From NCBI GenBank assembly GCA_000165345.1, contig CM000434.1, positions 992,001 to 1,056,000 of the forward strand: a stretch of 64,000 nt of DNA. Reading direction: 5' to 3'. Under the pieces are notes generated by a model. The model made no database searches. It saw nothing but the letters and a program-made list of their open reading frames with translations, and was not told the DNA's origin. How positions within the stretch are numbered: the first letter of the stretch is position 1; each line of letters begins with the position of its first letter. Position numbers and translations under genes: made by a program. Below are positions 3,145 through 60,401 of this stretch, one piece after another.

Positions 3145-3158
3145 TTTTGGCGCCAAAA
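3145..3158. promoter_or_regulatory. perfect 14-bp E2F-type palindrome TTTTGGCGCCAAAA, 98 bp upstream of ATG 3256
   Basis: Exact palindrome. Located in the 145-bp spacer between genes. Confidence 0.6.
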
Positions 3159-3255
3159 TGTCACAGTGGGGAAGTCTGCGGTATTGCAAGAAATTACTAA
3201 AATAAAGAATTATACAAAAAAAGAAGTTTGTATTTGAAGTGATTATATTGACTTT

Positions 3256-6099
3256 ATGAGCACTTATAGTGTTTTTGAGCTTGGGAAACTGGATGAGAAG
3301 GATTTTTCTGCAATAGCATGGTTGAATAATGCATTAAGACGAAGAAATGTAACAGAAAATGGACGTCAATTGGAAGAAGAACTTCTTACAATTTCTCAAT
3401 CATGTATGTATACAATTACTGATTATAATGAACAAATTGAAACAAATATGGATGAAATAAATAACTTAATGACTAGTTTTATTTCTAAAAAAGAAGAAAA
3501 TAATAGAATTTGCAAAGAACTTAATTCAAAGATCAGTGAATTTTCTAATTTATTAATTTTAAATGAAGAAAAATACCTTAATAACAATAATATTGAAAAT
3601 ATATTATCTCTTTTTGAAAAGAAAGAAAAGCTTGAAACTGTTTCACAGATTCTAACAAATAACAGCAAATTTGAATTATTATTCAATGAAATTGAAAGTG
3701 TTCTAAATGACAAAGATACATTCTTATTATTAATTAAAGAACAAGGTCAAGATTTTCATGATATTATTAATAAGGTTTACTCTTTGAGACTTCTAGTCAG
3801 CAGTTTGGAATCAATACCAGAATTCTCTGCTAGAATAGAACGTTATAAAAGTCTTGAAAATACTATACTTAATATATTGGATGATTTCTTTCAAAGTAAA
3901 TTTACTAATGAAACTATTGAAGAAAATACTACTAATGAATTAATTCTAGTTTATTTCAAATTTGGTCATGAAACAAGATTATATAAGAAAACTATGAATA
4001 TTATTAATGAACAAATAGAACAGGTTTGGAAACTTTTATGGTCTTTAACTACTTTTGGATCACAAAATAAAGCATCAGAAATCGATCAATTTAAAAAAAT
4101 GGGCAAAAAAACAAATCAAAATGAAAAACATTCTTCTATTATCTTTCTTCCAGCTATTGAAGATTTAGAATCTGCCTATATTACACAAGATATATTCAGA
4201 ATTAGAGAAGATGAAGCTATTTCTAGATTCTTTTCATGGTTTTCTGAACTTATATGTTCAAGAAATCATATTATTGATCCAATATTATCAAGTAATCATA
4301 CTGCTATTACTATTTCAGAAGTTATCCAATCTATTATTCAGAAATTACTTGGAGTTTGTATTCCAGATATAAAAGAATTTATCAATATTGTAGTTAACTC
4401 AATCACAAGCTCTAAATTTATTTTTCCTGAAAATAATTCAGAAAGCTTTGAAATGGATTCAGATTCTATATTTGAAATGAATCATGATACAATATCAACA
4501 ATTGACGTTAAAGAAATTCGAACAATATGTGAAAGAATATGTAAATCAATCATTAATGGATTAGAACTTGTAATTATTCCTGATTTAAATAAACAAGGAA
4601 TATCAAATTTTATATCAAATCATTTGAATCAAGATCATCTTACTCATATTTCTGATATATTATTAATTAAAGGAAATTTTATACAATCACTTTTGCTTTG
4701 TGATATAGCATGGATTTTCCAAAGTATGAAAAACATTTCATCTAACTTAAAAACATTAATTATTAATCAGTCACCTGTTTCAGAGTATTCATCAGAAATT
4801 GAGTCTAAAAGTTCAATTTTAGTTGAAAGAATTGGAGTGTTACTTTCAAATGAAAGATTTGGTGATTATACACAACTTACTTTAATTCCTTTAGAAAATT
4901 ATATCATTTTCTTTATCTCAATTATTGATTACTCACTCAGATTTTTCCTTGAAAATGATTTAATTTACTTATTAAATCCTATTCAAAGTTCAGTTAGAAC
5001 TGAAACATTAAATTTGATTAAAAGTATTGAGAAGAAACAAAAGAATTCAAATCTGTTATTAACATCAGCTAATGTATTGGATAAAGATTTACTTTCATCA
5101 TGTTTTGCTTTTCATTTTTCATTAATGAAAACCAGAAAGATTTTTTATGATTTATTACAGACTTTAATAGTTCGTTGTAAATCAATATATTCTTCTTCAA
5201 CTGAATCAGAATCTCTTTTATCAAAGATATTTCATGATCAAATATGTTTTAATCAATATTCAATATTTCAAAGAATTCAAGAAACTATATCAGAATCTTT
5301 ATCTATTGAAATTCAAGCTATTCTTACTGGTCAAGAATCTTCTTTAAATCAGTCTAATTTTTTTGATAAATTTGGATCACAAATATTAATTTCTCAGATA
5401 CTCTCAGATTCTATTGATATTATTTCCCAATGTTGTTCATATCCAACTTTAGCATTTTTTGAAGGATATAACCGTCTTAATTCTTGGAGTAAAGAAAACA
5501 TTAATATTATTAAAGAAATTCATAATTTAAAAGATTCTAATGCACAATGTTTAGAAGAAGCTATAATATCCATTATCGAGAATTCAAGTATTCAACCATG
5601 TAGTTCTATTGTTTCTATTGGAGAATATTTATTAAATATTGTTGTAACTTTAGAATCTACATGTAATAATAATCCAGAGATGCAAAATCAAATAGAATCT
5701 GAAAATCTCATTCCAGAACTTGTTAAAAAGGTATCATATATTGTTGAAGATACATATAGACGTCAAATATTTGAAATTGAATACTTAAGTAAGCAAGGAT
5801 GCTTACAATTATATGTTGATTCTAAATATATTTTGAATATATTTGAGATACTTTTACTATATCATAAAAATCCTGAATTAGATAATTCTAATACTCAAAA
5901 AAAATTACAATCTGAAGAAATTATTCAAGATCATAAACAAAACAATAATGAGGTACCTGTTGGTAATGAAATTGTGTCTCTTAATAATGCTTTATTTATG
6001 ATCATCTCAAATACAACAATAGAATCTTCATCAAACAACAATCTTTTAGAATGGTATAATTCTTTGAAACAAAAGATAAAAAATACCGTCCAAGAATAA
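3256..6099 (+). CDS. hypothetical protein, 947 aa, Asn/Ile/Ser-rich, no confident domain (N-terminus weakly resembles CATCHR/COG-type tethering subunit N-termini)
   Basis: 2.8-kb uninterrupted ORF in AT-rich DNA. E2F-type palindrome ttttggcgccaaaa 100 bp upstream. Confidence 0.65.
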   Translation: MSTYSVFELGKLDEKDFSAIAWLNNALRRRNVTENGRQLEEELLTISQSCMYTITDYNEQIETNMDEINNLMTSFISKKEENNRICKELNSKISEFSNLLILNEEKYLNNNNIENILSLFEKKEKLETVSQILTNNSKFELLFNEIESVLNDKDTFLLLIKEQGQDFHDIINKVYSLRLLVSSLESIPEFSARIERYKSLENTILNILDDFFQSKFTNETIEENTTNELILVYFKFGHETRLYKKTMNIINEQIEQVWKLLWSLTTFGSQNKASEIDQFKKMGKKTNQNEKHSSIIFLPAIEDLESAYITQDIFRIREDEAISRFFSWFSELICSRNHIIDPILSSNHTAITISEVIQSIIQKLLGVCIPDIKEFINIVVNSITSSKFIFPENNSESFEMDSDSIFEMNHDTISTIDVKEIRTICERICKSIINGLELVIIPDLNKQGISNFISNHLNQDHLTHISDILLIKGNFIQSLLLCDIAWIFQSMKNISSNLKTLIINQSPVSEYSSEIESKSSILVERIGVLLSNERFGDYTQLTLIPLENYIIFFISIIDYSLRFFLENDLIYLLNPIQSSVRTETLNLIKSIEKKQKNSNLLLTSANVLDKDLLSSCFAFHFSLMKTRKIFYDLLQTLIVRCKSIYSSSTESESLLSKIFHDQICFNQYSIFQRIQETISESLSIEIQAILTGQESSLNQSNFFDKFGSQILISQILSDSIDIISQCCSYPTLAFFEGYNRLNSWSKENINIIKEIHNLKDSNAQCLEEAIISIIENSSIQPCSSIVSIGEYLLNIVVTLESTCNNNPEMQNQIESENLIPELVKKVSYIVEDTYRRQIFEIEYLSKQGCLQLYVDSKYILNIFEILLLYHKNPELDNSNTQKKLQSEEIIQDHKQNNNEVPVGNEIVSLNNALFMIISNTTIESSSNNNLLEWYNSLKQKIKNTVQE

Positions 6100-6189
6100 C
6101 TTTTAAGAATTGATAAACATTATAAAGTAATAACTATATTAATCAAGAAAGATCATCATACCTATTATCATTATTTTAATAATAATATA

Positions 6190-6921: not shown

Positions 6922-6952
6922 CCTTCGGTATTCTATAATTTGTCAGCTGTTC

Positions 6953-6986
6953 ATGGCGCCAGAAAGTCGCATGACTTTGGCGCCAA
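6953..6986. promoter_or_regulatory. pair of E2F-like sites (atggcgccag / tttggcgccaa) in divergent promoter of NudC-like and GPN3 genes
   Basis: Two TGGCGCCA cores 23 bp apart between divergent start codons 6921(-) and 7185(+). Confidence 0.6.
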
Positions 6987-7184
6987 TACCAATCTGACTA
7001 TAAATAAGGGTAAAGGAAAAGTAAAGTTGAAAGAAAAGTGGAAAAAGAGAGTTTTGGAGGATTGAATGTGTATAAATTCTAATATTTTCAATAAAGGTTG
7101 AGGGAAGAAATCTAACAAGAGATCTTACTTTTTTTCTTCTTGCTATTTTAGAATTTAATAAGACTAATTAGTCTTTAAATAGCT

Positions 7185-8274: not shown

Positions 8275-8301
8275 TTTCCCGCCAAATCCGCTTGGCGCCA
8301 T
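8275..8301. promoter_or_regulatory. E2F-like sites tttcccgccaaa and ttggcgccat upstream of secreted-protein gene
   Basis: Tandem GC cores ~160 bp upstream of ATG 8458. Confidence 0.55.
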
Positions 8302-9828: not shown

Positions 9829-9920
9829 TCAAATCTATTCGTCTTAGATTTCTTTTATTATAATTCTAAACAAACAACAAACTAATATTTACATCTTCAA
9901 CTCTACATGCACTATTTAAA

Positions 9921-10115
9921 TTTTCCCGCCTAAAATTGCTCGTATTTTTTAGAAGTTAGAAAAATTAACGCTTTAGTTTAATAATTAGGATCTACCATGT
10001 ATATCAATGAATTTCTTCTCTTCCATTCTGTGAAAACTCTTTTTTCCTCTTCATACGAGAATTGAAGTAATCCTTTGATAATTTATAAGGGAGGGTGAAA
10101 AGTTAGTTTTGGCGG
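9921..10115. promoter_or_regulatory. E2F-like sites ttttcccgcc (9921-9930) and ttttggcgg (10107-10115) upstream of giant ORF
   Basis: GC cores in the spacer 9829-10242. Confidence 0.45.
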
Positions 10116-10242: not shown

Positions 10243-13200
10243 TTGATCATCCTAAAGGAGGCTTGCGTTAAAAAAAAGGACCAAATGGTTCGTAATGGTG
10301 ATCAAAGTCTTATAAACATATCATCTACAGACAAGTCTGATAAATGGGACTTGAAGCATAAAAATGAAGAAATTCCAACCAGAAAAGTGGTGGAGGAATC
10401 AAGTCTAGAATACTACGAGAGATCATCGCGCTCGGCCTCGCACTTTGGTAAGGTTTATAATGGACTATATCCAGTAGGTCCAAGATTACCAAGTTTCTCT
10501 TCATCCAATAAAAGAAGTAGGCTACAGAGTACATATAATGAGGATGAGTTCAGTTCCAGTTCAGCAAATAGTTCTGTTATAAATTCCGATGATAAAATGT
10601 ATATTGATTTTCCAATTCGAAATTTCTGGAAGATTGCAAAGACTCCTATAGACATGGAATCTCCCCAAATTGGGTATTGTCGAGGCTTTTATTATAGATT
10701 GTTAGTTCATCCCAGAGGAGGGAGTTGTAATGATTCTGAAAGCAGCTACTTGAGCGTGTTTTTGGAAGCACTTTACCATGAATCATATCCAGACGATTGG
10801 ATTTTTCCAAATGTTCGATTTCAACTTTCAGTTGTAAACTTTTTAGACCCCAAAGCAAATATCACGTCTTGGGCCCATTGGACATTTTCTCATGATGCAA
10901 TGAGTAGAGGATGGCATAAGATGGTTTCACATGTGAGACTCACTAGAGCTGCAGGTTTTGTTGATGACGAAGGAACCGTGTTAATTAGAGGTAGAGCTGA
11001 GCCTCCATTTCCGAGAATTTGGTCAAGATCTCCTAAATGTAGGCCATGGAGTATATGGGGTACCTTACCCTATAGAAATGCATCAGCATTGGCTCAGTAT
11101 AAGCCTTGTATTACCGGAACCCGCCAAGATCAGAACCAAGGCTGTTCTGATAAGCATGTTATTACAACAAATCTTTGTGCTTTTCATGAATTAGCAGAGA
11201 ATTCTAATAGAGGTCTTCTTTCTTGTAGAGCAGAATCACTATCTTCAGAAAGTTGTGGCATTTCTCAACATCAGTTAGAAGGCTCCTTATTAGTAGGGAG
11301 TACTCCTTTGTCAATTATGGATAGACTTTTATGGTCCAGTAGTAATTTGTTTGTTCCAACTTTAAGATCTCAGCTTAATGTGGACTTTGTTCCTGCATTT
11401 GTCCATTTGCTTTACCATATCAAAGAGTTTAGGAGGGCAATTTTCTCTTGGAACCCACGAATCCCTAAGAAATGTTCAACAAATCAAAATCCCAATTCTT
11501 CAGAAAGGTCAAAGAAGCATGATCCCAATCATTCTCCCGCCTCATTTATAGACCCCCAACAGCCACGTACATCCATTATTGAGGCTCTTCAGAAAACCTT
11601 TGCATATATGACTCTCTGGCCAATTGCCTATTCTGTCAAAAGATCTATCCGACATAGCTGGCAAGAAAGAATAGCCACAGATCCTTCTCTTGTGGACGAT
11701 TGGTGTTTCTCTAAATGTTGTAAATGTGGTGGTGAATTTGACTCTTATCCTAACAGTCCTGAAATGACTGACACTTCATCACTCCATACATCAAATAGCA
11801 GAAATGGCCGGCATTGTGCTTCCGATAAAAGTATTCCAACCCAGAGTTCTATTTTCAAAGAAAAGGAATGTCTCAGATGCAAATTACCTCCTGTTCCAGA
11901 TTGTTCTTGGATTATGAAAGCTTTATATATGAACGATTTACAAAGGATTGATGTTGCTGACCCTCTCATGCGCTTCCATTGCTTCATTTTTGGCGCCATT
12001 TATTTGGAGTCTGCACATGCAATTCTCCAGATTGCCGCGCATCACAGAAAGTCAATTCCACAGAATTTCAGGGGTTCAGAAAAGTTTGCCAATTTAGAGT
12101 CATCTGAAGGGAAGGATGAGTTTGAGAGATCCGAATTAACTGATGGTGAGTATAAAGAGTTTAGAGAGTCGGATGAAAGGAGTTTAGGATCACAAAGAAC
12201 TAGAGATCAGGAACAAAGTCGAGGCCAAGGCCGAGGTCAAGGTCAAAGCCAAAACCAAGATCAAGATCAAAACCAGTACTATGATCATGGACAAACACAA
12301 GGACGAGATATGAATATCTCAATCTCTTCTATTTTTGACTTAGAAGAGGATCTGAGAGTCCCAACAGAGTTTGATAATACTTGCAGAGTATTGTTTTCCA
12401 GTGTAGCTGAAGATGGAGGTGATTGCTTCTCTGACTACTCCACGTGCTGCCTTAGAGCTAAGCATATTCATTCAATCCCCAAAGCTATTGAGCATTATGC
12501 TCACAGATTTAAAAGATTCCCTGAAACACTTTTTATTTACTTCACTCCTCCAAAAAATGCCAAGAAGGGAGAGTTGTTTGACGTTCCTTTTAGGCTTGAA
12601 GCATCATTTTTATTGGAGAATTCCAATGTAAATGTAAATACAGGTATCGGAGTGGTTGATCAAGATTTTAAGGGTATAAAATCTGATAATCGTGGACAAA
12701 ACACTAATCAACAAGAGGATATTCAACCTCTTGTCACTGAACAATTCCAAGATGATGAAGTTATTGATGAAAGTACTCCAGACCTGAAAGGTAAAGTTAG
12801 AGGTAATAAAGAAGCAACAGGCTCTGAATCTGGTCAAAATACAACGAGCGTAGTTTTGGACAATAATGATTCTGCATTATGTGTTGAATCCAATGATGAA
12901 TACTCTTTAGAATACGTCTCAGAGGATGGATTTGATGAGAATCAGGACACCTCTATTCAATCTGATAGTCAGGACGATACAACAGGACATAAAAGTGATG
13001 TCAAATCTCCAAATTCTGAGAACTTCTTTGGATCTTCCAGCCAATATATGGAAAAATGGTACTCATTATATGGAGTGATCATTAAAGAAGGAGACGCTTC
13101 TGGAAGTAATTCTACAAGAAGTGTTCATCAACTTCTAATTAGACCTGAAGAAGATGGTCCATGGTTTAGAATTTGTGATGGTTTAGTTGAAAGACTTATA

Positions 13201-21850: not shown

Positions 21851-21884
21851 ATGCATGCAGAACTTTTGGCGCCACCCCACACTA
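21851..21884. promoter_or_regulatory. composite ATGCATGCA + E2F (ttttggcgccacc) + G-box-like (ccccacacta) module upstream of gene 22221
   Basis: Contiguous 34-nt GC-rich module. 20-mer almost identical to module at 53535-53558. Confidence 0.6.
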
Positions 21885-22220: not shown

Positions 22221-24395
22221 ATGATTCCGAATGGATCAAAACTTGAGCTTGGAACTTTAGTATTAGGTTCTGAAACAGTAAGAAAAGGATGGAATGCATT
22301 TTCAACTTTAAATAATGCAATAGATGGAGTTAGAAAAGTGGCAAATGATGTAGTAGGATATAATAATTCAACAACAATAGGAAATGAGAATTATAAAGGA
22401 GAATTGGAAAATAATAAAATAGTAAGTATAATAGAGAAAATAGAAGTAGGACAGGTATATGGAAGATTAAAAAATGATTTAAAATTAATACAAATATTTG
22501 AAAGAGAAACAAAATCAATGGGAACTTTAGAAATTATTTCAATTAATAATAATTTAGACTTTTCATATTTAAATATAAGATGGAGACGAAAAATGGGTGA
22601 AAAATTAATTGATATACAAGGTAAAGATTCAAGCCTAAAATATAACTTAACAGCTGATGATGTAGGAACAATTATTATTATAGAAATATATCCAAAAGGA
22701 GAAGCAAATGATCCTTTAAATATTACATATTGTGAATTAGGACCTATAGAAATAGATGATACAACAAAGATATCTTTATCAAAATCTTTAAAAACAGGTC
22801 TTATTAGATTCCCTGTAGAAATTATAAAAGATGAATTTGAAAGCTTAATAAATCCAGAAAATTCTTCAAAAGAATTAAAAAATGATGAAGATTCAATAAT
22901 GACAAAAGATATTTTGGTAGTAACAAATGATGATGTTAAAGTAATTAAAAATGGAATGACAAGTTCAAATTCAAACTTTGAAAAGAAAATTGTATGGTCA
23001 GCAAAATACTTTGGTGGTAATATACATATTCAATTAAATCATCAATCATCATCTTGTCAAGAATTCACTCTTTGTTCTGGATACGATATTCATAAACAAA
23101 AGATATCAATTAAAACAACAAGTAGAAATGCTAGAGATATTGCAGCTTTAACAATTAGATGTTTAAATATTAGACACACAATATCATTAGAAGCTATAAT
23201 TGGAGGTGGAGTTTCCTGGATCCCAAAAAACTCAACAGTAAATGATTCAGATAATATGGAAATTGAAGAAAATAGAAAATTAAATATTTTTGCTTATATA
23301 GGACGTCTAGAAGATGAAATTGCAAATTTAGAGAATAACAAGGAAAAACTGAACGAAGATAAAAAACTTCTTCAAACTGAAAAAGCTATTTTAGAAAATG
23401 AATTAGCTGAGACAATTTCAGCTTATCAAGATATAATTTCTCAATATCAACAAGAAAAAGATACTAAAACCAATACTAACAAACAAACCAAAGAATTTAA
23501 CATAGAATTTGGGCTTGAAAAGAACACAGGAATTAAACAATCCAACAATAGTCCAAACAAAAAGTCGATTCAATCAAATTCAAATAATTCTCATAAATCT
23601 ACCTTACTACATGGTTACAGTGGTACCTATCCTATAAATAATTCAAAACAAGATGGATCTAGCAATTCAGAAAATAATAATAACTCACAGAAAAATGAAT
23701 CCATTCAACAAAATTCCACTGAAATTAATAAAATAATTGAAGAAAATGCTTCTCTTAAAGAGTCCATTTCTCAACTTAATAAAAAATTTGAAAATGAAAT
23801 TGGCGCCAAAGAGTCAATGGAGCGCATGCATGCAGAAATTGAAGAATTGCGCGGGAGATTGGAAAGGTCGGAAAAAGAAAAGGAAGACTATAAAAGATTA
23901 AATGAAAAATTAGATGGCGAAATCTTTGTTAAAAATCAAGAATTAGAGAGTATTAAGTTAGGACAATGTTTAAATTCGACTAGAAATATAGAAAAGATAC
24001 AGCAATTGGAAGATCGCATATTGGATCTTCAGAGTCAGAATTCTGAAAAACAACAAGCTATTCAAACTTTATCAACAGAAAAATCAAAGCTTCTAAAAGA
24101 CTTTTCATCATTAAAATTAGACTTTGATAAGCTTAAGGAGCAACATAATCAACTAAATAAGAGATACATAAGCTTAAATCTTGAGAATTCAAGAATTCAT
24201 GATCAAGAAAAATCATCAAAATTTGACAATGAACTCATGAATTCTGACTCTCAAAACAAAAATGACCAAGCTGTTGATATTACAAAACTAAAAAGTGAGC
24301 TTGAAGATTATAAGAAAACTAATTGTGAGCTTAACCAGACTATAACTCAACTTAAAACAAGAATACGAAGGTTAGCAATGATCAATTCTACTTAG
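22221..24395 (+). CDS. hypothetical protein, 724 aa, with C-terminal coiled-coil region
   Basis: Long ORF. C-terminal 300 aa heptad-rich (LEDRILDLQSQNSEKQQAIQTLSTEKSKLLKDF…). E2F/G-box/GCATGCA module 350 bp upstream. Confidence 0.65.
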   Translation: MIPNGSKLELGTLVLGSETVRKGWNAFSTLNNAIDGVRKVANDVVGYNNSTTIGNENYKGELENNKIVSIIEKIEVGQVYGRLKNDLKLIQIFERETKSMGTLEIISINNNLDFSYLNIRWRRKMGEKLIDIQGKDSSLKYNLTADDVGTIIIIEIYPKGEANDPLNITYCELGPIEIDDTTKISLSKSLKTGLIRFPVEIIKDEFESLINPENSSKELKNDEDSIMTKDILVVTNDDVKVIKNGMTSSNSNFEKKIVWSAKYFGGNIHIQLNHQSSSCQEFTLCSGYDIHKQKISIKTTSRNARDIAALTIRCLNIRHTISLEAIIGGGVSWIPKNSTVNDSDNMEIEENRKLNIFAYIGRLEDEIANLENNKEKLNEDKKLLQTEKAILENELAETISAYQDIISQYQQEKDTKTNTNKQTKEFNIEFGLEKNTGIKQSNNSPNKKSIQSNSNNSHKSTLLHGYSGTYPINNSKQDGSSNSENNNNSQKNESIQQNSTEINKIIEENASLKESISQLNKKFENEIGAKESMERMHAEIEELRGRLERSEKEKEDYKRLNEKLDGEIFVKNQELESIKLGQCLNSTRNIEKIQQLEDRILDLQSQNSEKQQAIQTLSTEKSKLLKDFSSLKLDFDKLKEQHNQLNKRYISLNLENSRIHDQEKSSKFDNELMNSDSQNKNDQAVDITKLKSELEDYKKTNCELNQTITQLKTRIRRLAMINST

Positions 24396-24546: not shown

Positions 24547-24558
24547 TTTTGGCGCCAA
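24547..24558. promoter_or_regulatory. E2F-like site ttttggcgccaa, 60 bp upstream of TRAPPC8-like ATG
   Basis: TGGCGCCA core in spacer. Confidence 0.55.
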
Positions 24559-24618
24559 GTGTGAATATTCATCTTTAAAGCTTTATTATGAACAGAAATC
24601 TATAGTTATGCAGACAAA

Positions 24619-30506: not shown

Positions 30507-30743
30507 TTCTACTAAAAAAAGAATCTAAAAGACTAAGGATGTGTATTAAAGCTAGAAATGCATGCATGCATGCAATTATAACGGTATCGATTAAACCAGC
30601 TTAAGAATTTTCTTTTCTTGAGGGTGAAAAAAAAAAATTCACTCCTAGATTATCTCATTTTCTGTTGTATTCCTTTCTTAGAGTGTTACAAAAGTCCTGA
30701 ATATACTAAACTTAGTAAACATGTAATTAAAAAAATCAATAAT

Positions 30744-31650: not shown

Positions 31651-31673
31651 GCCCGCCTAAATTTTGGGCGGGC
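31651..31673. promoter_or_regulatory. near-palindromic double E2F half-site gcccgcctaaattttgggcgggc ~320 bp upstream of RPS5
   Basis: Inverted GGCGGG cores separated by taaatttt. Confidence 0.5.
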
Positions 31674-31741
31674 AGTTGGAATCATTAATATTAAATGTGG
31701 GAGAAAAAATTAAATGATTTTAATTAATTTGTTTAGAATAA

Positions 31742-32695: not shown

Positions 32696-32746
32696 TGATC
32701 CTATTCTCTAGTCTTAATCAATATTTTAAATTTCTTGATCAAGAAG

Positions 32747-33120
32747 TTGGCGCCAAATATATGCATGCTTTATTCTTCAAATCTATTAATATTTTCTACA
32801 TGTAAATCCTTTTCTAAGCCAAGTCTTTTTTTTGTAATAACTAATATTTTATACTCAAATATAAATTTCCACTCTAACGATATTTTTTGCCTTATTAACC
32901 TCTCAAACCTAATCCATTATGTTTTAACAACCCTATCAACTTCATATCCTTCTAATCAAACTCTAGAAACATCAATATTCTATCTCCTAATATACCCAAT
33001 ACCCTCCTATCTAAAGTTATTCCTCTAACTCCAATCTTCCTTGCATGCAAGTTCTTTATTCACTTTCTTTTATTATCCTCGAATTTATGTCTACCACACT
33101 TTAATAGTTTTGGCGGGAAA
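32747..33120. promoter_or_regulatory. divergent promoter (histidine phosphatase / myosin): ttggcgccaaat (32747), atgcatgc (32761), tgcatgca (33042), ttttggcgggaaa (33108)
   Basis: Four GC-rich motif occurrences in the 518-bp spacer between divergent ATGs. Confidence 0.55.
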
Positions 33121-33213
33121 GTCTACCAACATGTTAAAGGCTTTTTATTAATGGATAAAAGTAAATTTGATAAATAGAAAAGGCTGAATTACCTTTTTGA
33201 AAATTGGGAAAAG

Positions 33214-37656: not shown

Positions 37657-38178
37657 TGCTTTTTTTTTTCTTTATAATCTTTCAAGTTACCTATATGCAT
37701 GCATGCAAATTCCTAGACGAGACGAGACGAACGTGTGAAAATATATCCATGCTTTAAAATTGAAAATTTAACTTTCAGATTTGATAGCTCTTGGAGCTGT
37801 AATATTGAAATGGTGATGACAATATTAATTTTAGAAAATAAATAAGTTTTTTTGATACTTTGTTAGTGAATAAATTAGTAGGAACATTTAGCTTTGATAC
37901 CTTAATCTATTTATATATGTTTTTGAATACGCGCCTTGTTTGAATCTGTCTCATATATTCCTTTTAATTTAAGAAGAAATTAATCAAAAAAAAAAAGGAG
38001 AGGAAGAAAGAAAGAAAACTAATCCTAAATATGTTCAAAAAACAAAAGGGAAATGAATATCTAGTAAACTCAATATTAAAATTACTCCACAAAAATCCAT
38101 TCGCATCCCATTGTTTGCAGTCTCACTCTACTTCCATGCAAGTATTTTTTATGGGCCCGCCATTTTAATCCACCCAAT

Positions 38179-38230
38179 CCCCACACTTAGATAATCTAAA
38201 AAGGGTTTCTCTTTTTGGCGGCAAACCCGC
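38179..38230. promoter_or_regulatory. G-box-like ccccacact (38179) and E2F-like tttttggcggcaaacccgc (38212) upstream of Rpt1
   Basis: GC cores ~200-240 bp upstream of ATG 38424. Confidence 0.5.
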
Positions 38231-40581: not shown

Positions 40582-40592
40582 GTTTGGCGGGC
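40582..40592. promoter_or_regulatory. E2F-like gtttggcgggc, 63 bp upstream of 4-TM protein gene (minus strand)
   Basis: GGCGGG core just 5' of start codon 40519(-). Confidence 0.5.
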
Positions 40593-41140
40593 TTTTCCCA
40601 AGAAAAGTAATATTGGCACACGGAAATAAATTAAATAATAATAATTTTTGTGTGGCCAAAGTAAAAGTTAAAAATGAATGTGTGAAATATCTATTTAGTA
40701 AAATAAAAGGATTTGGTTTTACATTAGTTTTGGTTTTTTTAGTATTTATTATGTACGGTAGCATTGGTAGTGTATTGTACAATCAATAATTATATATTAA
40801 TAGTAAATACCAAATTCCAGAAATGAGTTGATTTTACTCTGTTAAGTTTTCTGAGAGGCTTTTATTGAATAAATTTACTTCATTTAGTTTATTAAAGATT
40901 CTGAAGAAATATAACTTAGGGTCTTATATTTCGAATAATTTTAAATATTAGATGTTCTGAATGAGAATTTAAATATTAGTAGTGAAATAAAATAGTTTCT
41001 GAGTATGTCCAAAGCATTATTATATTGGATTTACTTGATTTTTGGGAAAAAATCAAATAATATTGAATAATTGGTGATCTTAAAATGCTCTCTATAAGAA
41101 GTACCAATAAAAAGAAATAGGAAATAAATGGAGTTAACAA

Positions 41141-43077: not shown

Positions 43078-43530
43078 CGTGCCGCCAAATTTCCATTTGT
43101 ATTTTATTATTTTAAATTATATACACTCGTTGCTGCTAAGCTATTGATTCTTTGACAATAAAAAAAAGTTAAATTTTACAAGCAGTTCTCTGCTTTTGAT
43201 CATACAATCAAGCTTATTCCGCCTTGATATTTCTTTATTATCATTTCTTCTCTTTTTCTTTTTGTTTAATTCACGATTTTTTTTTTCTCTTTTATTATCT
43301 TCATTTAAAATGCCAACATAAATATTTTTATAAAATTTCAAAAATCTGCATTTCCACATTAATACGTAATTATTTCTGCATGCAAACACCGGCACGCTGA
43401 CAATTATTTAATGAAAAATTTTGTTTGTTTGCATGTAATGCCGGTATATTAATTAGGAAAAAAAAAATGTGCGCCTAATTCGAAAATTATTTTCTGTAAT
43501 TTATTATTAATCAGGTTCGATTCCCACACT
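43078..43530. promoter_or_regulatory. divergent promoter (RRM gene / PP2A B'' gene): cgtgccgccaaatttcc (43078), gcatgcaaacaccgg (43378), cccacacta (43522)
   Basis: E2F-like, AP2-like and G-box-like elements in 880-bp spacer. Confidence 0.5.
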
Positions 43531-47493: not shown

Positions 47494-47818
47494 CATGTGG
47501 ACATTGCATGAATTTTTCTTTTCAACATGCAATAATTCTTATTGCTAATCGCCGGTATAGAAAAAATTCACTTACTCACATTTACACGTATGCAACTGGC
47601 ATGCATGCAATTACAATGCAAGCTCATGTGGACAAATAAATTATTAAAAAAAACAATGTACAAGGTTCTAAAAAAATCTTAAATTCAATATAATTTTAAC
47701 TGCTTTATTTATTTTCTATAATTTTTAATTAAACAAGAAAAAACAATTTTTAAGTTTTTTTCAAATATATTTGCAAAGTATCACCTCAAATAATTTGAGA
47801 AAAAAAAATGCGGGAAAG
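47494..47818. promoter_or_regulatory. divergent promoter (GST-like / ProRS): catgtggacattgcatgaattttt (47494), ggcatgcatgcaa (47598), tgcgggaaag (47809)
   Basis: Motif cluster in 850-bp spacer. 24-mer shared with 58683-58704. Confidence 0.5.
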
Positions 47819-53462: not shown

Positions 53463-53534
53463 CTTTGTTTCTTAATACCCCCTGTTTTCTTTTTTTATTT
53501 TGACAAGAGAAAACTCCTTTAGTTTAAGGCAAGC

Positions 53535-53558
53535 AAAAGGCGCCACCTCCCCACACTA
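53535..53558. promoter_or_regulatory. E2F + G-box module aaaaggcgccacctccccacacta in 233-bp bidirectional promoter of DNA pol delta and RecQ
   Basis: Only GC-rich element between divergent ATGs 53462(-) and 53696(+). Near-identical to 21864-21884. Confidence 0.65.
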
Positions 53559-53695
53559 TGTTAATTCTTATTGAAATGAATTATTTAAAATATAGTCAAT
53601 TTTATGTTTTTAGGTATTTTTGCATCAAGAAAAAAGGGACAAGAGTATTATTTCTTTTTTCCTTTAATATTGTGAGAAATAATATAACCCAATAA

Positions 53696-56668
53696 ATGGA
53701 AGATGAATCAGAATTTCAAGAAACTCATAAGAGTAGTTTAGAGTCGGAATTAAGATGGTATAAGGAGAATTTTGAACAAATAAAAAACGATTTACTCTCT
53801 AAATTGAATAAAGGCAGAAGTTCTAACTCAGAAATATCATGTGTGCTGCAAAATGAAACAAACAATATCGGTAAAATCTTTTTCGGAAAACCTATCAGAG
53901 ACTTTTCCTCGTTTTCCAATGTAATTCGAAATGTTTCAAAAAAAATTACCTTCAATAGTGATAGCCATGCATGCACACACCCGCATGCAAACACCGGTAT
54001 TGAAAATACATACGTGGCAGAGATTTCGGATAATCATGTGGACAACATAATTAGTAATCACAAAAAAGTTGAAGAGTTGTGTAAGGAAGAGAATGAAGAT
54101 GAAGTTATAGAATTGAAAGTATTGGGATGTGGAGGAAGGGAAGTAGAGGAGATTGTATCAAGCTCATCTTCTAGCAAGGAGAATTTATATACAATTTTGA
54201 ATATCCTGCCAAATTCTGACTTTTCAACGGTTAAAACAAAGTCCAGAAAGAATACAACAAAGAAAAGCTCTTCAAACGAGAAAAAGTTATTGAATTGCAG
54301 GAGAAAAGTTCAGGTCAATGAGAAGGACCAAGATTGGGAAAGGGAAGATTTTGAATGGTCAGAGGATATGAAAAGAATCAATGAGCAAGTTTTTGGCAAT
54401 GAATCATTTAGGTCAAATCAAAGACAGATAATGAATGCAGTGGTTTCTCAAAGGGACGTTTTTGTTATGATGCCAACAGGAGGAGGAAAGTCACTTTGTT
54501 TCCAGCTTCCTGGCCTTTTAAAATATAACAACCCTGCAAGTGTGACGGTGGTTATCATGCCCTTAGTTGCACTTATGGTTGACCAAATTGAACAGTTGAA
54601 TATACTCGGCATTAAATGTGCAAGTTTGAATAGTAATCAGTCTGCAGATGAGTTGAATCATATTACATCCTTACTGAAGAAGGGAGATCCTGAAACATGT
54701 CCTGCCTTTCTATTTGTAACTCCCGAAAAGCTTAAGCATTCAAAGACTTTGTTTTCACTACTAAAGCAAATTAATGATGAATCAAGATTATTAAGATTTG
54801 CAATTGATGAGGCTCATTGTGTTTGTCAATGGGGATTTGACTTTAGACCTGACTATATTCAACTTTGTAAACTCAGAGAAGAGTTCCCAAATGTCCCGAT
54901 AATAGCATTAACTGCCACTGCCACTCATAGTATTTTGAGTGATGTAATTAAACAACTAAAGATGCGATCTCCTGCTATCTTTAGTCTTTCTTTTGACAGA
55001 CCAAATCTAAAATATGAGGTAAGAGCTAAAAGTGGAAGTAAAAAAAAGATGCTCAATGAGATCTGTGAGCTGCTTAGATCTCCACGGTTTTGTAGATCAA
55101 CAAGTATTATCTACTGTTTGAGCAGAAATGAGTGCGAAGAAGTCTCCAAAGATTTGAACAAGGAAGGAATTTCTGCAACATATTACCATGGATCCATGAA
55201 AGAAGATAAGCGGAATCTGGCACAAAGAAGATGGATGAATGACGAAAAGCAGGTCATGGTAGCAACCATAGCATTTGGAATGGGAATCAATAAAAAAGAT
55301 GTTAGACTTGTGATTCATCTATCCATGCCAAAATCCCTTGAAAACTATTACCAAGAAAGTGGTAGAGCTGGAAGAGATGGACTAGAGTCTAAATGTATAT
55401 TATATTACTCTTACAAAGATGTCTCTAGATTACAAACTTTAGCAGGAGTTAACATTGAAAAACCTTCCAAAAAGTATTATACCTCCAAGAATAACTCTTC
55501 AAATAACAAATCCACAATTGATGGACTTTTAGGTATGGTGAAATATTGTGAAGAACAATATAAATGCAGAAGAACAATGATTCTAAGCCATTTTGGAGAG
55601 GATTTTAAAGGAAAATGTAAGGTTAAATGCGATAATTGTATGAGATCTGAATTAGAAAAGCCGACTAACATTAATGTGGAAGGTCTTGCTCGTCAAGTCT
55701 TTCACTCAGTAAGAATGAGCCTTCAAGAACAGGCAAGAGCTACAAAAACCTATGGATTTTTAACTTTATCTAGCTTAGCAGAAATCTTAAAAGGAAAGAA
55801 AAAGAAAGATAAGCAATCAAAAGGCTCCCTTAAAGACTGTATTGGTCTTCTTAATGATACAAATATTTGGAAGCCAGGAAATCTGCAAAGATTCCTGCAT
55901 TTGTTTATTATTAATCAGCTTTTTTCTGAGAATTTGGTTCAACTCAAAAATGGAGTATCAGTTGCTTCTCTTAAAATTGATAAACAAGCAGAAAAACAAG
56001 ATATCTATGAACTCGACTTTTCTTGTTTCAAAGCCTTACAGTTAGAGTCCATCTACTCTACTCCAATTCCAGAATCAAATAATGTTAATTTGGGCCATAA
56101 TATTAACTCATCTCTTTCCTTGTATTCTTTTAACTCAAAACAATCTTCTTCAGATATTAATTTTGCTAATAATGGCTTAATATCTAACTCTAACAACATA
56201 GAGAACTTGAATCACGATAAGAATCTCAAGGAATCCAGAAGAAAAAGACAATTCATTGATAAAGGATCTCCCCATTCAATAGTTAAGAAGAAGCAGGCAA
56301 ATTTGATGTATCAAGAATCTAACAGTGAAAATGAACAGCTTAAAGATTTTAGAAATCAATTACTTTTACTAAGAAGAAACTTAGCTGCAGAGTTTGGAAT
56401 CTCTAATACCAACTCTATTGCATCAAAGGAAGCTATTGATGCTCTTGTTGAGAATCTCCCGCTTTCATTAGATGCTCTTAAAACACTTCCTGGATGGGGC
56501 GCAAGGCAAAAACTTGAAAGATTTGGTCTCAGATTCATCTCAAAGGTCAGAGATTTTGTTGATTCCAAGTCAACCAATATGTTTTATACCGAAAAGAATT
56601 ATACTTGTCCAATTGACCTTATTAATCCTGAAGATCTGGACAAAGAACTAGATCTTATTTGGCAATAA
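53696..56668 (+). CDS. RecQ-family ATP-dependent DNA helicase
   Basis: 990 aa. Helicase core (MPTGGGKSLCFQLPG, DEAHCVCQWGFDFRPDY, RQ-C zinc region), C-terminal HRDC-like domain. Non-conserved 220-aa N-terminal extension. Alternative in-frame ATG at 54368. Confidence 0.9.
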   Translation: MEDESEFQETHKSSLESELRWYKENFEQIKNDLLSKLNKGRSSNSEISCVLQNETNNIGKIFFGKPIRDFSSFSNVIRNVSKKITFNSDSHACTHPHANTGIENTYVAEISDNHVDNIISNHKKVEELCKEENEDEVIELKVLGCGGREVEEIVSSSSSSKENLYTILNILPNSDFSTVKTKSRKNTTKKSSSNEKKLLNCRRKVQVNEKDQDWEREDFEWSEDMKRINEQVFGNESFRSNQRQIMNAVVSQRDVFVMMPTGGGKSLCFQLPGLLKYNNPASVTVVIMPLVALMVDQIEQLNILGIKCASLNSNQSADELNHITSLLKKGDPETCPAFLFVTPEKLKHSKTLFSLLKQINDESRLLRFAIDEAHCVCQWGFDFRPDYIQLCKLREEFPNVPIIALTATATHSILSDVIKQLKMRSPAIFSLSFDRPNLKYEVRAKSGSKKKMLNEICELLRSPRFCRSTSIIYCLSRNECEEVSKDLNKEGISATYYHGSMKEDKRNLAQRRWMNDEKQVMVATIAFGMGINKKDVRLVIHLSMPKSLENYYQESGRAGRDGLESKCILYYSYKDVSRLQTLAGVNIEKPSKKYYTSKNNSSNNKSTIDGLLGMVKYCEEQYKCRRTMILSHFGEDFKGKCKVKCDNCMRSELEKPTNINVEGLARQVFHSVRMSLQEQARATKTYGFLTLSSLAEILKGKKKKDKQSKGSLKDCIGLLNDTNIWKPGNLQRFLHLFIINQLFSENLVQLKNGVSVASLKIDKQAEKQDIYELDFSCFKALQLESIYSTPIPESNNVNLGHNINSSLSLYSFNSKQSSSDINFANNGLISNSNNIENLNHDKNLKESRRKRQFIDKGSPHSIVKKKQANLMYQESNSENEQLKDFRNQLLLLRRNLAAEFGISNTNSIASKEAIDALVENLPLSLDALKTLPGWGARQKLERFGLRFISKVRDFVDSKSTNMFYTEKNYTCPIDLINPEDLDKELDLIWQ

Positions 56669-56947
56669 CTTATCATAGTTATCTCTAATTTGCTTAATTA
56701 AACTATTTTTCTTATAAGTCTCTTTAACCAGATAATCATAATATTTATTCTTTACTAGAATCCATTTAATGTTATTAATATGGCAATTTGGCGGGAATTT
56801 TATGCAATTCTTATTTGTTGTGCATGGCCTCGTTTGGCGCCCAGTCTGTGTATAAATGAGGTATAATGTTCAACTTGTATTTTAATAGAAGTTGTTGGTT
56901 CAAATTTGTAGATCCAAAGTTCGTTATGATCTTATTGCATTTCCAAG

Positions 56948-57952: not shown

Positions 57953-58024
57953 GTTTTTACTTTGTTCCTTCCTTTCACTCTAAATTAATCCTTGAATTTT
58001 AAAATTTATATGTATAAACAAAAA

Positions 58025-58065
58025 TATATGAATATATATATTAACCCAATATATATATTCATATA
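58025..58065. repeat. perfect 18-bp inverted repeat (tatatgaatatatatatt / aatatatatattcatata) with 5-bp spacer aaccc
   Basis: Arms are exact reverse complements. Lies 72 bp upstream of minus-strand ATG 57952 in a 1-kb divergent spacer. Confidence 0.9.
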
Positions 58066-58964
58066 AATATATATATTGGATTAATATGTAAGTTTATTAA
58101 AAAACATTATTTTTTGAGAAAGCCAGAATGAATTCTAGAGCTTTTCAATTGAAGAAAGAAAGCGAAATGTATACAATTTGAATATTTTGACAAATTTTAA
58201 TCTTCATGTAAGTTTTAATTAATTTACCGGTACTTTTGCCTTGTCATTAATATGTGCACCCGAGTGTGCACACAGCATTGCCTCGATGTGATTTCAAAAG
58301 AATTATTAAAAATAATAATTGAGTGAAAATCTGGCAAATTTAAGACATGTCTACACAAATATTTTGAGTAATCTTTTCTTTTCCCGTCAAATGCTTAATT
58401 TCATATTCATCAACCATTTTCTTTCACCCAAATATGTAATCCTATGTGGGCAATATTAAATTAATTTAATAGAATTTTTCGTATTCAACAAGTAATGAAC
58501 TTTTTAAGACTAAATTAAGTTTTGATATTATTTCTATCGCAAATACCTAAATAAATATTTACTAGCTTACTCTACAATTCGACTTTAGTTGTTTTATCTC
58601 CTATCTTTTTCTCCACCCCAATTTTTTTTTTTATTTAATTGTTGACATTTACCGGTACATGCAATTTTGCTTGCATGAAATTCATGTGGATAATGCATGA
58701 ATTTAGAAAAAAAATATTCAATACCGGTGAAGGATTTAATGTGGATGCATGCAATAATGTTATTATGGGACTAAGTAGAGGAAATTTTCGTCAAATAATG
58801 AATGAGAAAAAAAATAAGTAGAAAGTGGAAAAGGAAAATAGGAATAATTATTGTTAATTTTGTATATTAGTGTAGAAAATAATATACATATATGTAAAAG
58901 AGAACAAAAAGAGTTAGGTTTTTTTTAAGAGTTTAACCATAGTTGTTGATTTTTATTAAAAAAT

Positions 58965-60242
58965 TTGAATAAGATTATTAAAGAAGAGCCAATGTCTGAA
59001 AAGAATATTATACCATTTCAGGAGGAAGAGACGAATAATGAAAAAAAGTTGGGAGTTTATGAAAAACAGGATTTGAGTGAAAGGAGGAAAGAGCTTTGGA
59101 TAATTTCAAAAAGTCTTGGGGCAATTACATTGGTATCTGCAGTAATGAATCTGGTTTTGGTTGGGATAATGATATTTATGGTAAACAGCCTAATTAAAGG
59201 CATAATATCAGAACATTCCAGGCAAATAGCAATTCAAAAGGGGATGTTATCAAACTTTATTGAAAGGAATTCAAGAATAGAAAAAAGTGTTCATAATGAA
59301 AGGATGAATTTTAACGATCATTGGAGGAAAGGAGCTGGAATACTTCCATTAAATATGCTTTACAATGCGCCATTAAAAAGTCTAGAGAATGTAGATGCTA
59401 TCATACTAGAGTTTGATGAACCAGAACAAATCGAATCTGGAAATCAAGAGAAAAAAATTAAAGGAAAAAGGCACCAGCATATGTATCATGTTGAATCCAT
59501 TACAAGAGAAGTTTCAGTAGAAGAGATGGAAGGAGGAAAACATAAAAAAAAAGAGGAAGCTGTATTAAAGTTTAACTTAACCAATCAAGGTACACTCACT
59601 GTTTATAAGGATAAAGCTATTTTAAGAGATAGGTTAGGAAACAAAGTGCATGAACTTTTCTTTGAATCAGAAAATCAAACTCATGAATATCAAAGCAAAG
59701 AAGCGGAAAAATTGCTCAGATCCGACTCAAAAGACGAGGAAAATGAAAAACAAGGTCACATACAACCTAATAATAGAAAGCTTATATCTTCCAATTCACA
59801 CAAGCACTCAGCATCCCATTCTTTGAAAACTCAAAGTGGTTATATGGCAGCTGTATGTAAATATGGATGCGGAGAAATGGGAGTAACCTACCCCTATTAC
59901 TATCGCCCCTTCTTTGGATATGGATTTCCTTTACTAGGTACTGAACCGTATTTCCAAAGTGGATATGGAGGTAATGTTGAAACTGCCATGAATAATAATA
60001 TGTTCAACCCTGAATCAGCTGGTCCTCGTCCTCCAGGAGTACAAGCAACTCCACAAACTTCACCATTTGCAATGGGCGAAAATCCATATAGCTATCCATA
60101 CTCATCTAGCCCAGGAGGAGGATACTATTATTACTATAACTTCTACCCTCCACCTCCCCCAATGCAACCAGAACCGTTCCCATATTACGAAGAAAGCTAT
60201 TACAATATTCCCCAAAATAACACAGAAGAAGAAGAAGAATAA
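58965..60242 (+). CDS. type II single-pass membrane protein with Tyr/Pro/Gly-rich C-terminus
   Basis: 425 aa. One TM helix (AITLVSAVMNLVLVGIMIFMV) near the N-terminus. C-terminal 120 aa extremely rich in Tyr/Pro/Gly (YPYYYRPFFGYGFP…GGGYYYYYNFYPPPPPMQPEPFPYY), acidic tail. Confidence 0.6.
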   Translation: MNKIIKEEPMSEKNIIPFQEEETNNEKKLGVYEKQDLSERRKELWIISKSLGAITLVSAVMNLVLVGIMIFMVNSLIKGIISEHSRQIAIQKGMLSNFIERNSRIEKSVHNERMNFNDHWRKGAGILPLNMLYNAPLKSLENVDAIILEFDEPEQIESGNQEKKIKGKRHQHMYHVESITREVSVEEMEGGKHKKKEEAVLKFNLTNQGTLTVYKDKAILRDRLGNKVHELFFESENQTHEYQSKEAEKLLRSDSKDEENEKQGHIQPNNRKLISSNSHKHSASHSLKTQSGYMAAVCKYGCGEMGVTYPYYYRPFFGYGFPLLGTEPYFQSGYGGNVETAMNNNMFNPESAGPRPPGVQATPQTSPFAMGENPYSYPYSSSPGGGYYYYYNFYPPPPPMQPEPFPYYEESYYNIPQNNTEEEEE

Positions 60243-60387
60243 TCCCCTCCTTCTCCCCACATATCCTCTATCAAGTCTTTATCTAAGCAGAATAATAATA
60301 AATTCTCTCTGTAAAACGATTGCCGCCAATACTATGACTACCCATTTTGCATGTACCAGTCATTTGTTAACTTTGACGTGTTTATTA

Positions 60388-60401
60388 TTGGCGCCAAATT
60401 T
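60388..60401. promoter_or_regulatory. E2F palindrome ttggcgccaaattt 54 bp upstream of small Tim ATG
   Basis: TGGCGCCA core. Supports reality of the 95-aa gene. Confidence 0.55.

Follow-up and report, generated by a model that had tools for sequence, protein, structure and literature searches.

An E2F-like promoter motif in a stretch of Cryptosporidium parvum chromosome 6: enrichment, placement and conservation of its sites

The described motif and the window on chromosome 6

The most over-represented upstream motif in Cryptosporidium parvum is an E2F-like one, 5'-TGGCGCCA-3' or GGCGGG, with a consensus of TGCGCCA type, and its over-representation was first noticed in the non-coding DNA of chromosome 6 (PMC3734150). 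It has been described by Bankier 2003 (for chromosome 6 itself), Mullapudi 2007, Oberstaller 2013/2014 and a 2025 ATAC-seq preprint. Of 200 co-expression clusters, 161 have the motif upstream (PMC4117751); lncRNA promoters carry it (PMC7840661), and it is the most prominent one in sporozoite ATAC-seq peaks (bioRxiv 10.1101/2025.01.17.633476). Alone among the apicomplexans studied, Cryptosporidium has retained E2F/DP winged-helix heterodimers, and it is reported to be the one apicomplexan genus with both the factor and the motif. In C. parvum there are two E2F genes, cgd1_1570 and cgd6_1430, and two DP genes (PMC3734150, bioRxiv 10.1101/2025.01.17.633476). Most partner proteins of animal E2F are reported to be absent from it (PMC3734150), and most regulatory components are, according to a 2025 review, without functional validation (PMC12246861).

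We analysed a stretch of 64 kb (the window), in which boxes of the form TTTGGCGCCAAA or TTTGGCGGGAAA recur between genes. The window is part of C. parvum chromosome 6. It maps to CP029785.1 and BX526834.1, its gene order is syntenic, and its proteins match chromosome 6 entries of C. parvum Iowa II exactly (CAD98468.1/EAK90025.1, CAD98469.1/EAK90027.1, CAD98258.1/EAK90037.1); a 456-aa protein encoded at 8458-9828 has an identical counterpart in C. parvum only. A sequence-only reading had placed the window in Cryptosporidium, and protein comparison agrees, down to the species. The compact layout, taken together with the E2F-type motif and the TGCATGCA boxes, is enough to assign an anonymous window such as this to the genus. 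The intron-poor, compact organization that had been remarked on is evident as well: there are 23 genes, 83% of the window is coding, and the ORFs coincide with the annotated CDS. No E2F_TDP domain was found among the window's proteins, either in a Pfam scan of ten of them or in the precomputed Pfam hits of the called genes; the published E2F and DP genes are located outside the window.

The boxes of the window are the E2F-like promoter motif already described for C. parvum; they are real but ordinary. Organism, chromosome, consensus ([C/G]GCGC[G/C] or GGCGGG) and intergenic enrichment are the same, and so is the co-occurrence with TGCATGCA (AP2_1) and with the G-box. There is no essential difference between the two; what the window adds is the conservation of individual sites and some exceptions to their placement. 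The canonical E2F/DP site of animals and plants, TTTSSCGC (in Arabidopsis TTTGGCGGG or TTTCCCGCC), has the same 12-bp layout, with a symmetric CG core between a T-rich and an A-rich flank. The motif of the window is not confined to cell-cycle genes; it is found at about 87% of promoter-bearing spacers.

Enrichment and placement of the boxes

The 18 positions listed by the sequence-only reading all carry the sequence given for them. At 16 the GGCGSS core (GGCG[CG][CG]) is complete, and the remaining two, 10107 (TTTTGGCGGTTAA) and 47809 (TGCGGGAAAG), are merely weak variants or half sites. Expected counts for the window were obtained from 100 dinucleotide-preserving shuffles. TTTGGCGCCAAA with at most one mismatch occurs 7 times (0.08 expected); TTGGCGSS occurs 28 times (0.41 expected) and TGGCGCCA 10 times (0.03 expected), and none of the 100 shuffles reached the observed counts. 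The figure of about 0.2 chance occurrences per 8-mer suggested earlier was of the right order of magnitude, if slightly high. When intergenic DNA is scanned for k-mers without bias, the E2F-like motif and TGCATGCA rank at the top, GGCGCCAA being found 13 times against 0.04 expected. The enrichment is specific to the motif and is not one of general GC-richness; the only all-G/C hexamers enriched are GGCGCC, CCCGCC, GCCCGC and GCCGCC. Counted position by position, 23 intergenic sites yield the consensus T(T)TGGCG[CG][CG]AAA, whose T-rich 5' and A-rich 3' flanks extend it to TTTGGCGC. This is compatible with TTTSSCGC, and the core is the symmetric [C/G]GCGC[G/C] or GGCGGG of an E2F/DP site.

The second strongly enriched palindrome is the GCATGCA box, known from the literature as AP2_1 and also pointed out by the sequence-only reading. 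There are 13 copies of TGCATGCA against 0.68 expected and, in intergenic DNA, 38 of CATGCA against 2.7 and 15 of ATGCATGC against 0.16. A palindromic GCATGC core enriched between genes is what characterizes this ApiAP2 box, which is bound by cgd2_3490. It occupies the same spacers as the E2F boxes, often within tens of bases of one (21852/21867, 23801/23827), and it is present in two long divergent spacers without E2F cores (47602, 58746). The two boxes differ in their core and in the family of the binding protein, which for AP2_1 has been demonstrated experimentally.

Of the 33 GGCGSS cores in the window, 23 lie in its 10.6 kb of intergenic DNA and 10 in its 53.4 kb of coding DNA, an 11.6-fold difference in density per base (binomial P = 2e-11). 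GC content is 26% in intergenic and 32% in coding DNA; the intergenic excess of cores holds although the DNA there is the more AT-rich. At least one core is found in 13 of 15 promoter-bearing spacers and in 1 of 7 convergent ones (Fisher P = 0.0023), so that the comparison of 5' with 3' spacers, proposed earlier as a check, gives a significant contrast per spacer. The contrast per base is not significant (2 cores in convergent spacers, 3.4 expected, P = 0.31) because these spacers total only 1.4 kb. Promoter-bearing non-coding DNA is enriched in cores relative to coding DNA and to chance, as E2F/DP sites would be. Site-to-gene assignments, tallied for genes with their 5' end inside the window, give a core to about 18 of 22, and the description of the motif as near-universal was a fair one. 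Location in 5' spacers is a tendency when counted per spacer, but it is not a rule. One 3'/3' convergent spacer has strong sites at 56790 and 56836, and the 10 cores in coding sequence include full palindromes at 11991 and 23801. The convergent-spacer sites, the palindromes inside two CDSs and the lack of a significant per-base contrast were counted against an explanation by E2F/DP.

The cores are spread over promoters more evenly than random placement would have it (P = 0.028), and the median distance from a site to the nearest ATG is 146 bp. In tandem spacers the distance from the sites to the downstream ATG is no shorter than that to the upstream stop codon, which counts against the E2F/DP reading.

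Individual sites and their fate in related species

The perfect 12-bp palindrome TTTGGCGCCAAA (3146..3157) stands 104 bp upstream of the ATG of a COG7-like gene, in the tandem spacer 3079-3255. Two GGCGCC sites, ATGGCGCCAG (6953) and TTTGGCGCCAAT (6976), together spanning 6953..6987, share the 263-bp divergent spacer between a CS-domain gene (-) and GPN3 (+); C. ubiquitum retains the two of them, and C. ryanae retains the first. The pair TTTCCCGCCAAA and TTGGCGCCAT (8275..8301), likewise kept in C. ubiquitum, is 161-177 bp upstream of the gene for the 456-aa protein, which has a signal peptide. The spacer upstream of a 3805-aa gene holds a site of the GGCGGG type, TTTCCCGCCTAA (9922..9933, minus strand), together with the weaker variant at 10107. 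Further along, TTTGGCGCCACC (21865..21876) precedes a 724-aa gene by 350 bp, with TGCATGCA directly 5' of it at 21852, and TTTGGCGCCAAG (24548..24559) precedes a TRAPPC8-like gene by 74 bp. An inverted pair, GCCCGCC-N8-GGGCGGGC (31651..31674), is found some 320-335 bp upstream of the gene for ribosomal protein S5 (-). In the divergent spacer 32696-33213 each gene has its own site: GTTGGCGCCAAA (32746..32757) is 56 bp upstream of a histidine-phosphatase gene (-), and TTTGGCGGGAAA (33109..33120, plus strand) is 99 bp upstream of a myosin gene (+). The proteasome gene Rpt1 has GGGCCCGCCATT (38153) and TTTGGCGGCAAA (38214) 204-265 bp upstream (38153..38225). For a 235-aa gene (-) the site is TTTGGCGGGCTT (40583..40594), 69 bp upstream, kept as AAGCCCGCCAAA in C. 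meleagridis and C. canis. The divergent spacer RRM556/hyp496 contains CGTGCCGCCAAA (43078..43089), kept in C. meleagridis. Finally, ATTGCCGCCAAT (60319) and ATTGGCGCCAAA (60387) lie 62-130 bp upstream of a 95-aa Tim10 gene (60455-60742, +), over 60319..60398; both are kept in C. meleagridis, and GGCGCC sites are retained in C. canis.

The sites away from annotated promoters are TTTGGCGGGAAT (56787) and TTTGGCGCCCAG (56833), spanning 56787..56844 in the convergent spacer between RecQ and a 334-aa gene; a cluster of ATTGGCGCCAAA, GCATGCATGCA and TTGCGCGGGAG (23799..23872) inside the 724-aa CDS, where composition is promoter-like; and TTTGGCGCCATT (11989..12000) inside the 3805-aa CDS. Those in the convergent spacer may form the promoter of a transcript that is antisense or has escaped annotation.

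The motif is also present at a classical pair of E2F targets, DNA polymerase delta and RecQ helicase. Their divergent promoter carries a composite G-box and E2F element, GTGTGGGGAGGTGGCGCCTTTT (53536..53559, minus strand). In an alignment of this spacer from four species, with a mean identity of 41%, the sole long invariant block is GTGTGGGGAnnTGGCGCC, that is, TGGCGCC and the adjoining G-box. Invariant blocks at the motif are seen in spacer alignments with mean identities of 41-61%, and the motif is kept at orthologous promoters in C. meleagridis, C. canis, C. ubiquitum and C. ryanae, the pattern expected of purifying selection; the exact core is not so kept in C. andersoni and C. serpentis.

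Three syntenic loci of the gastric clade (two of C. andersoni, one of C. serpentis; 65.5 kb with 28 spacers) contain no GGCGSS, in a sample that is less than 1% of a genome and in which two of the three loci share orthologous spacers. This absence was counted against the E2F/DP explanation. A GCGC core is present 18 times in promoter-bearing spacers of these loci against 2.0 expected, in 12 of 19 such spacers and in 0 of 9 convergent ones, and its hexamer is AGCGCT, AGCGCC or AGCGCG. At the orthologous PolD1/RecQ promoter, C. serpentis keeps the G-box, but after it the TGGCGCC of intestinal species is replaced by TTAAGCGGGTAAA. The comparison points to a change from G to A in the palindrome's outer base in the gastric clade, possibly one that co-evolved with E2F/DP specificity. 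Since GGCGSS is absent from the gastric loci, the exact GGCGCC/GGCGGG core looks like an intestinal-clade form. We consider that restriction tentative and on balance doubtful; it conflicts with Liu et al. 2016, where the legend to Fig. S1 gives TGGCGCCA as dominant in C. andersoni too. The boxes had been called a genus-level signature, and while the genus was assigned correctly, the genus-wide occurrence of the exact palindrome is itself in doubt.

What might bind the boxes, and what they mean

We put at about 80% the probability that the boxes are binding sites for E2F/DP, in promoters that are compact and often bidirectional. Sequence, enrichment, placement and conservation are from the present analysis, and the E2F/DP genes and the location in open chromatin are from the literature. 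If correct, each box would be bound by an E2F/DP winged-helix heterodimer, whose preferred targets would be TTTGGCGCC or TTTGGCGGG, and most genes would be preceded by a short, nucleosome-free spacer with one or two such sites. Since the core is a palindrome or close to one, both genes of a divergent pair could be served by one site or one pair of sites (CS/GPN3, PolD1/RecQ). ApiAP2 boxes, namely TGCATGCA and the G-box GTGGGG, would act alongside and add stage specificity. That E2F/DP binds at these sites and activates transcription we infer, and the label E2F-type, apt for the consensus and for a species with E2F/DP genes, should be read as putative binding only. Near-ubiquity beyond cell-cycle genes, unlike classical E2F regulons, was counted against the E2F/DP explanation.

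Other readings can be considered. The boxes could be genuine promoter elements bound by something else, such as an ApiAP2 domain, a zinc-finger or a Myb protein, their resemblance to TTTSSCGC being coincidental. The literature cited reports no direct E2F/DP binding assay in C. parvum, presence at nearly all promoters is atypical for E2F, and motif-bearing ribosomal genes are not expressed in step with the E2F genes (PMC3734150). Yet protein-binding microarrays with C. parvum AP2 domains gave TGCAT, CACACA and the G-box rather than GGCGCC, and E2F is listed among the motifs unbound by AP2 (PMC4117751). The arrangement over 12 bp, a 6-bp CG core between T-rich and A-rich flanks, also matches an E2F/DP site closely, and factor and motif are reported to coexist in Cryptosporidium alone among apicomplexans. 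We consider a different binder unlikely.

It is very unlikely, in our estimate, that the boxes are mainly a general core-promoter or chromatin-opening element with a constitutive binder and not a regulated switch, marking nucleosome-free regions or fixing bidirectional start sites. Such an element would fit the one or two sites per promoter-bearing spacer whatever the function of the gene (ribosomal protein, proteasome, myosin, tRNA synthetase neighbours, DNA polymerase), the more even than random spread over promoters, and the motif's dominance in ATAC-seq peaks and presence upstream of lncRNAs and between polycistron genes (bioRxiv 10.1101/2025.01.17.633476, PMC7840661). Sites in the convergent spacer and in coding sequence would be compatible with cryptic or antisense start sites. 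E2F/DP could, however, be the protein bound there, and published clustering ties the motif to expression peaks, for instance at 2 h post-infection (PMC3734150). An artefact of composition or chance, or a repeat remnant, has nothing to recommend it beyond the shortness of the motif and is refuted by the shuffles and by cross-species footprints. No dispersed repeat family spans the sites, their flanks are unrelated to one another, and the sites are kept across species in spacers that have otherwise diverged.

The main finding is a re-derivation of a motif known since the chromosome 6 paper and now seen as the dominant element in promoters of C. parvum; the useful additions are at the level of sites. 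The conserved composite of G-box and E2F site at the DNA polymerase delta / RecQ promoter would be a good test case for a reporter. Transcripts that have escaped annotation may be marked by the E2F sites in a 3'/3' spacer and within a coding sequence. The outer base of the palindrome may differ in gastric-clade species, and if this difference is genome-wide, it would be a natural experiment on the co-evolution of a factor and its site in a genus whose transcription factors are very few.

Source of the sequence and its genes

Three proteins encoded in the window match Cryptosporidium parvum Iowa II entries exactly, and this identity bears out the assignment to Cryptosporidium that had been made from the sequence alone. 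A fast-evolving protein of 456 amino acids with a signal peptide (SP456) is identical in C. parvum only; its versions in C. hominis and C. tyzzeri differ. The window corresponds approximately to positions 989,154-1,053,153 of CP029785.1 and is also part of BX526834.1. BX526834 is the sequence that Bankier et al. 2003 gave for chromosome 6.

There are 22 long ORFs in the window, matching annotated genes with identical proteins in public assemblies, and one more gene below the ORF threshold, which encodes Tim10 (95 aa, 60455-60742). This gives 23 genes and 83% coding sequence. Each gene is a single ORF, the last extending past the end of the window, so the layout was correctly described as compact and intron-poor. 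The spacer 60243-61013 cannot be counted as convergent because it holds the Tim10 gene; the site at 60390 is therefore an ordinary 5' site of Tim10.

The motif and where it occurs

All 18 positions named in the sequence-only reading bear the sequence claimed for them. Sixteen have the full GGCG[CG][CG] core (GGCGSS), while 10107 (TTTTGGCGGTTAA) and 47809 (TGCGGGAAAG) are variants only. Measured against dinucleotide-preserving shuffles of the window, the palindrome TTTGGCGCCAAA with at most one mismatch occurs 7 times (0.08 expected), TTGGCGSS 28 times (0.41 expected) and the palindromic 8-mer TGGCGCCA 10 times (0.03 expected). A motif-agnostic k-mer test of intergenic DNA places at the top GGCGCCAA (13 against 0.04) and TGGCGCCA (8 against 0.017), together with ATGCATGC and TGCATGCA. 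Since this ranking is unbiased, both the E2F-type boxes and the GCATGCA boxes, which had also been pointed out from the sequence, are real; TGCATGCA itself is found 13 times against 0.68 expected. The sites share the consensus T(T)TGGCG[CG][CG]AAA, with a T-rich flank on one side and an A-rich flank on the other.

Simple GC-richness does not account for the signal. Among hexamers made only of G and C, enrichment is confined to GGCGCC, CCCGCC, GCCCGC and GCCGCC; the other such hexamers are not enriched, and this, with the dinucleotide shuffles, rules out chance or composition as the source of the motif. A dispersed repeat or mobile-element remnant is also ruled out, no repeat family spanning the sites.

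The window has 33 GGCGSS cores. Intergenic DNA, with 10.6 kb, holds 23 of them and coding sequence, with 53.4 kb, the other 10, an 11.6-fold difference in density per base (P = 2e-11) despite intergenic DNA being more AT-rich. Spacers with a gene start at one or both ends carry a core in 13 of 15 cases, convergent spacers in 1 of 7 (Fisher P = 0.0023). The distribution over promoters is more even than random placement would give (P = 0.028), and the median distance from a core to the nearest ATG is 146 bp. In tandem spacers there is no systematic bias of sites towards the downstream ATG. Within the window the per-base contrast between 5' and 3' spacers is not significant (2 cores observed in convergent spacers, 3.4 expected, P = 0.31), a test of little power, given that only 1.4 kb of the window is convergent spacer. 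The proposed 5' placement stands as a preference for promoter-bearing spacers, but there are exceptions in a convergent spacer and in coding sequence, and restriction to 5' regions is a tendency.

The exceptions deserve a description. Two full palindromes lie within coding sequence, at 11991 and 23801. A promoter-like cluster of motifs (ATTGGCGCCAAA, GCATGCATGCA and TTGCGCGGGAG within 75 bp, 23799-23872) is found inside the CDS for a 724-aa protein, about 530 bp ahead of its stop codon. Two strong sites, TTTGGCGGGAAT at 56790 and TTTGGCGCCCAG at 56836, are in a genuine 3'/3' spacer, and no ORF or annotated gene accounts for either. This spacer (56669-56947), between RecQ and the gene for a 334-aa protein, is of unusual length (279-302 bp) in C. 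parvum and C. meleagridis, whereas C. canis, C. ryanae and C. serpentis have only 44-87 bp there; one of its two good E2F boxes is kept in C. meleagridis. At 88% identity, the alignment of the spacer between C. parvum and C. meleagridis is too similar to be informative. The spacer may serve as promoter for a transcript that is unannotated or antisense.

Some arrangements of other boxes can be mentioned here. The two long divergent spacers without an E2F core (47602-47664 and 58682-58753) have in common a pairing of TGCATGCA with (T)CATGTGGA, which is seen again at 1295-1338 and 53968-54074, upstream of Mo25 and within the 5' part of the RecQ CDS. ATGTGG is enriched in intergenic DNA (12 against 2.1). 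Overlapping tandem TGCATGCA boxes, (TGCA)n, occupy 3' positions at 30559-30574 and 37696-37707; one set lies between TRAPPC8 and RPS5, in their convergent spacer, and the other follows the myosin stop codon by 40 bp, in the spacer upstream of the proteasome gene Rpt1 but at the end away from that gene. At 31651-31674, about 320-335 bp upstream of the gene for ribosomal protein S5, the GGCGGG boxes are arranged not as a single palindrome but as an inverted pair, GCCCGCC-N8-GGGCGGGC.

Comparison with other Cryptosporidium species

Syntenic loci were compared around the DNA polymerase delta gene PolD1 (C. meleagridis, L015; C. canis, L016; C. ryanae, L017; C. serpentis, L018), around GPN3 (C. ubiquitum, L014; C. 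ryanae, L021; C. andersoni, L019) and around Rpt1 (C. andersoni, L022). Gene order is kept throughout. At the intestinal-clade loci the cores are in matching spacers: the Tim10 promoter, RecQ/PolD1, hyp496/RRM556, the hyp235 promoter, CS/GPN3, the SP456 promoter and the promoter of the giant gene, which encodes 3805 amino acids. In a four-species alignment of the bidirectional RecQ/PolD1 promoter mean identity is 41%, and the one long stretch without variation is GTGTGGGGA-nn-TGGCGCC, in which a G-box adjoins the E2F core. The two GGCGCC cores of the CS/GPN3 spacer are unchanged from C. parvum to C. ubiquitum, and C. ryanae also has the first of them. We read the conserved blocks as phylogenetic footprints of functional elements.

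The composite G-box and E2F element of PolD1/RecQ, GTGTGGGGAnnTGGCGCC, occupies 53536-53559 of the window, within a spacer of 233 bp (53463-53695), and is near 9920-9940 in L015-L018; it and is invariant in four intestinal-clade species. G+C content is 47% at the C. canis locus, compared with 31-33% in C. parvum and C. meleagridis, yet E2F boxes are still found in matching spacers; Tim10 is there too, at 3042-3335 of L016, although uncalled in that assembly.

On the genus-level signature that had been proposed, our data diverge from the sequence-only reading: the exact palindrome is missing from the loci of the gastric species, and it may not be genus-wide. In the 65.5 kb of C. serpentis and C. 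andersoni loci (L018, L019 and L022) there is no GGCGSS core, coding or non-coding, against 33 in the C. parvum window of similar size. What is enriched in the intergenic DNA of these loci is GCGC, which occurs there 18 times where 2.0 would be expected (the highest count in 300 shuffles is 7), and only 11 times in 54 kb of coding sequence. It is found in 12 of 19 promoter-bearing spacers and in none of 9 convergent ones. The hexamers are AGCGCT (6), AGCGCC (4) and AGCGCG (3), while 10 of the 14 NGCGCN sequences in C. parvum intergenic DNA are GGCGCC. The C. serpentis PolD1/RecQ promoter has GTGGGGTAGAATTAAGCGGGTAAAG, in which the box comes after the G-box in an AGCGGG form. A change of the outer palindrome base from G to A between the clades is a tentative suggestion from a small sample in which two loci share orthologous spacers. 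It also conflicts with Liu et al. 2016, where the legend of Fig. S1 gives TGGCGCCA as the dominant motif of C. andersoni too. For these reasons we consider the clade shift a lead and not a result.

C. andersoni carries one gene more between GPN3 and the SP456 orthologue (L019, 11477-12835). Its product is a 2-oxoacid dehydrogenase E2 acyltransferase with a lipoyl domain, and C. parvum, C. ubiquitum and C. ryanae lack the gene in the corresponding place. Its presence is consistent with the TCA cycle that gastric species retain (Table 2, PMC5146892).

E2F/DP as the likely binding factor

The consensus of the sites is the canonical E2F/DP site, TTTSSCGC. The E2F motif 5'-TGGCGCCA-3' is the most over-represented upstream motif in C. 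parvum, whose genome has genes for E2F and DP, absent from other apicomplexans (Oberstaller et al. 2013, PMC3734150); the E2F genes are cgd1_1570 and cgd6_1430. It is borne by 161 of 200 co-expression clusters, and AP2 domains bind other motifs (Oberstaller et al. 2014, PMC4117751). In ATAC-seq peaks no other motif is as prominent, and it lies upstream of polycistrons and even of the genes for E2F/DP (2025 preprint, bioRxiv 10.1101/2025.01.17.633476); upstream of lncRNAs, too, it is the top motif (PMC7840661).

Several other explanations can be imagined. The boxes might be bound by a protein other than E2F/DP, they might have a mainly structural, core-promoter role, or the pattern might be an artefact. 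Given the match to the canonical site and the identification of the motif in C. parvum by others, E2F/DP sites in compact promoters are the best explanation, to which we would give a probability of about 0.8. Its trans-factors and chromatin accessibility come from the papers cited, its sequence, enrichment, placement and conservation from the present analysis, and actual binding is inferred. In its essentials, the interpretation as an E2F-type promoter motif of Cryptosporidium is supported. If E2F/DP does bind, a site with a palindromic core could serve both directions of transcription, and the sites would act in combination with ApiAP2 boxes.

The motif was seen earlier by Bankier et al. in non-coding DNA of chromosome 6 (as related in PMC3734150 and PMC12246861). 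What we describe is therefore the known E2F-like motif of C. parvum, on the chromosome where it was first noticed, and the finding is not new. Classical E2F regulons are limited to cell-cycle genes, whereas in C. parvum the motif is nearly ubiquitous, a difference that has itself already been published.
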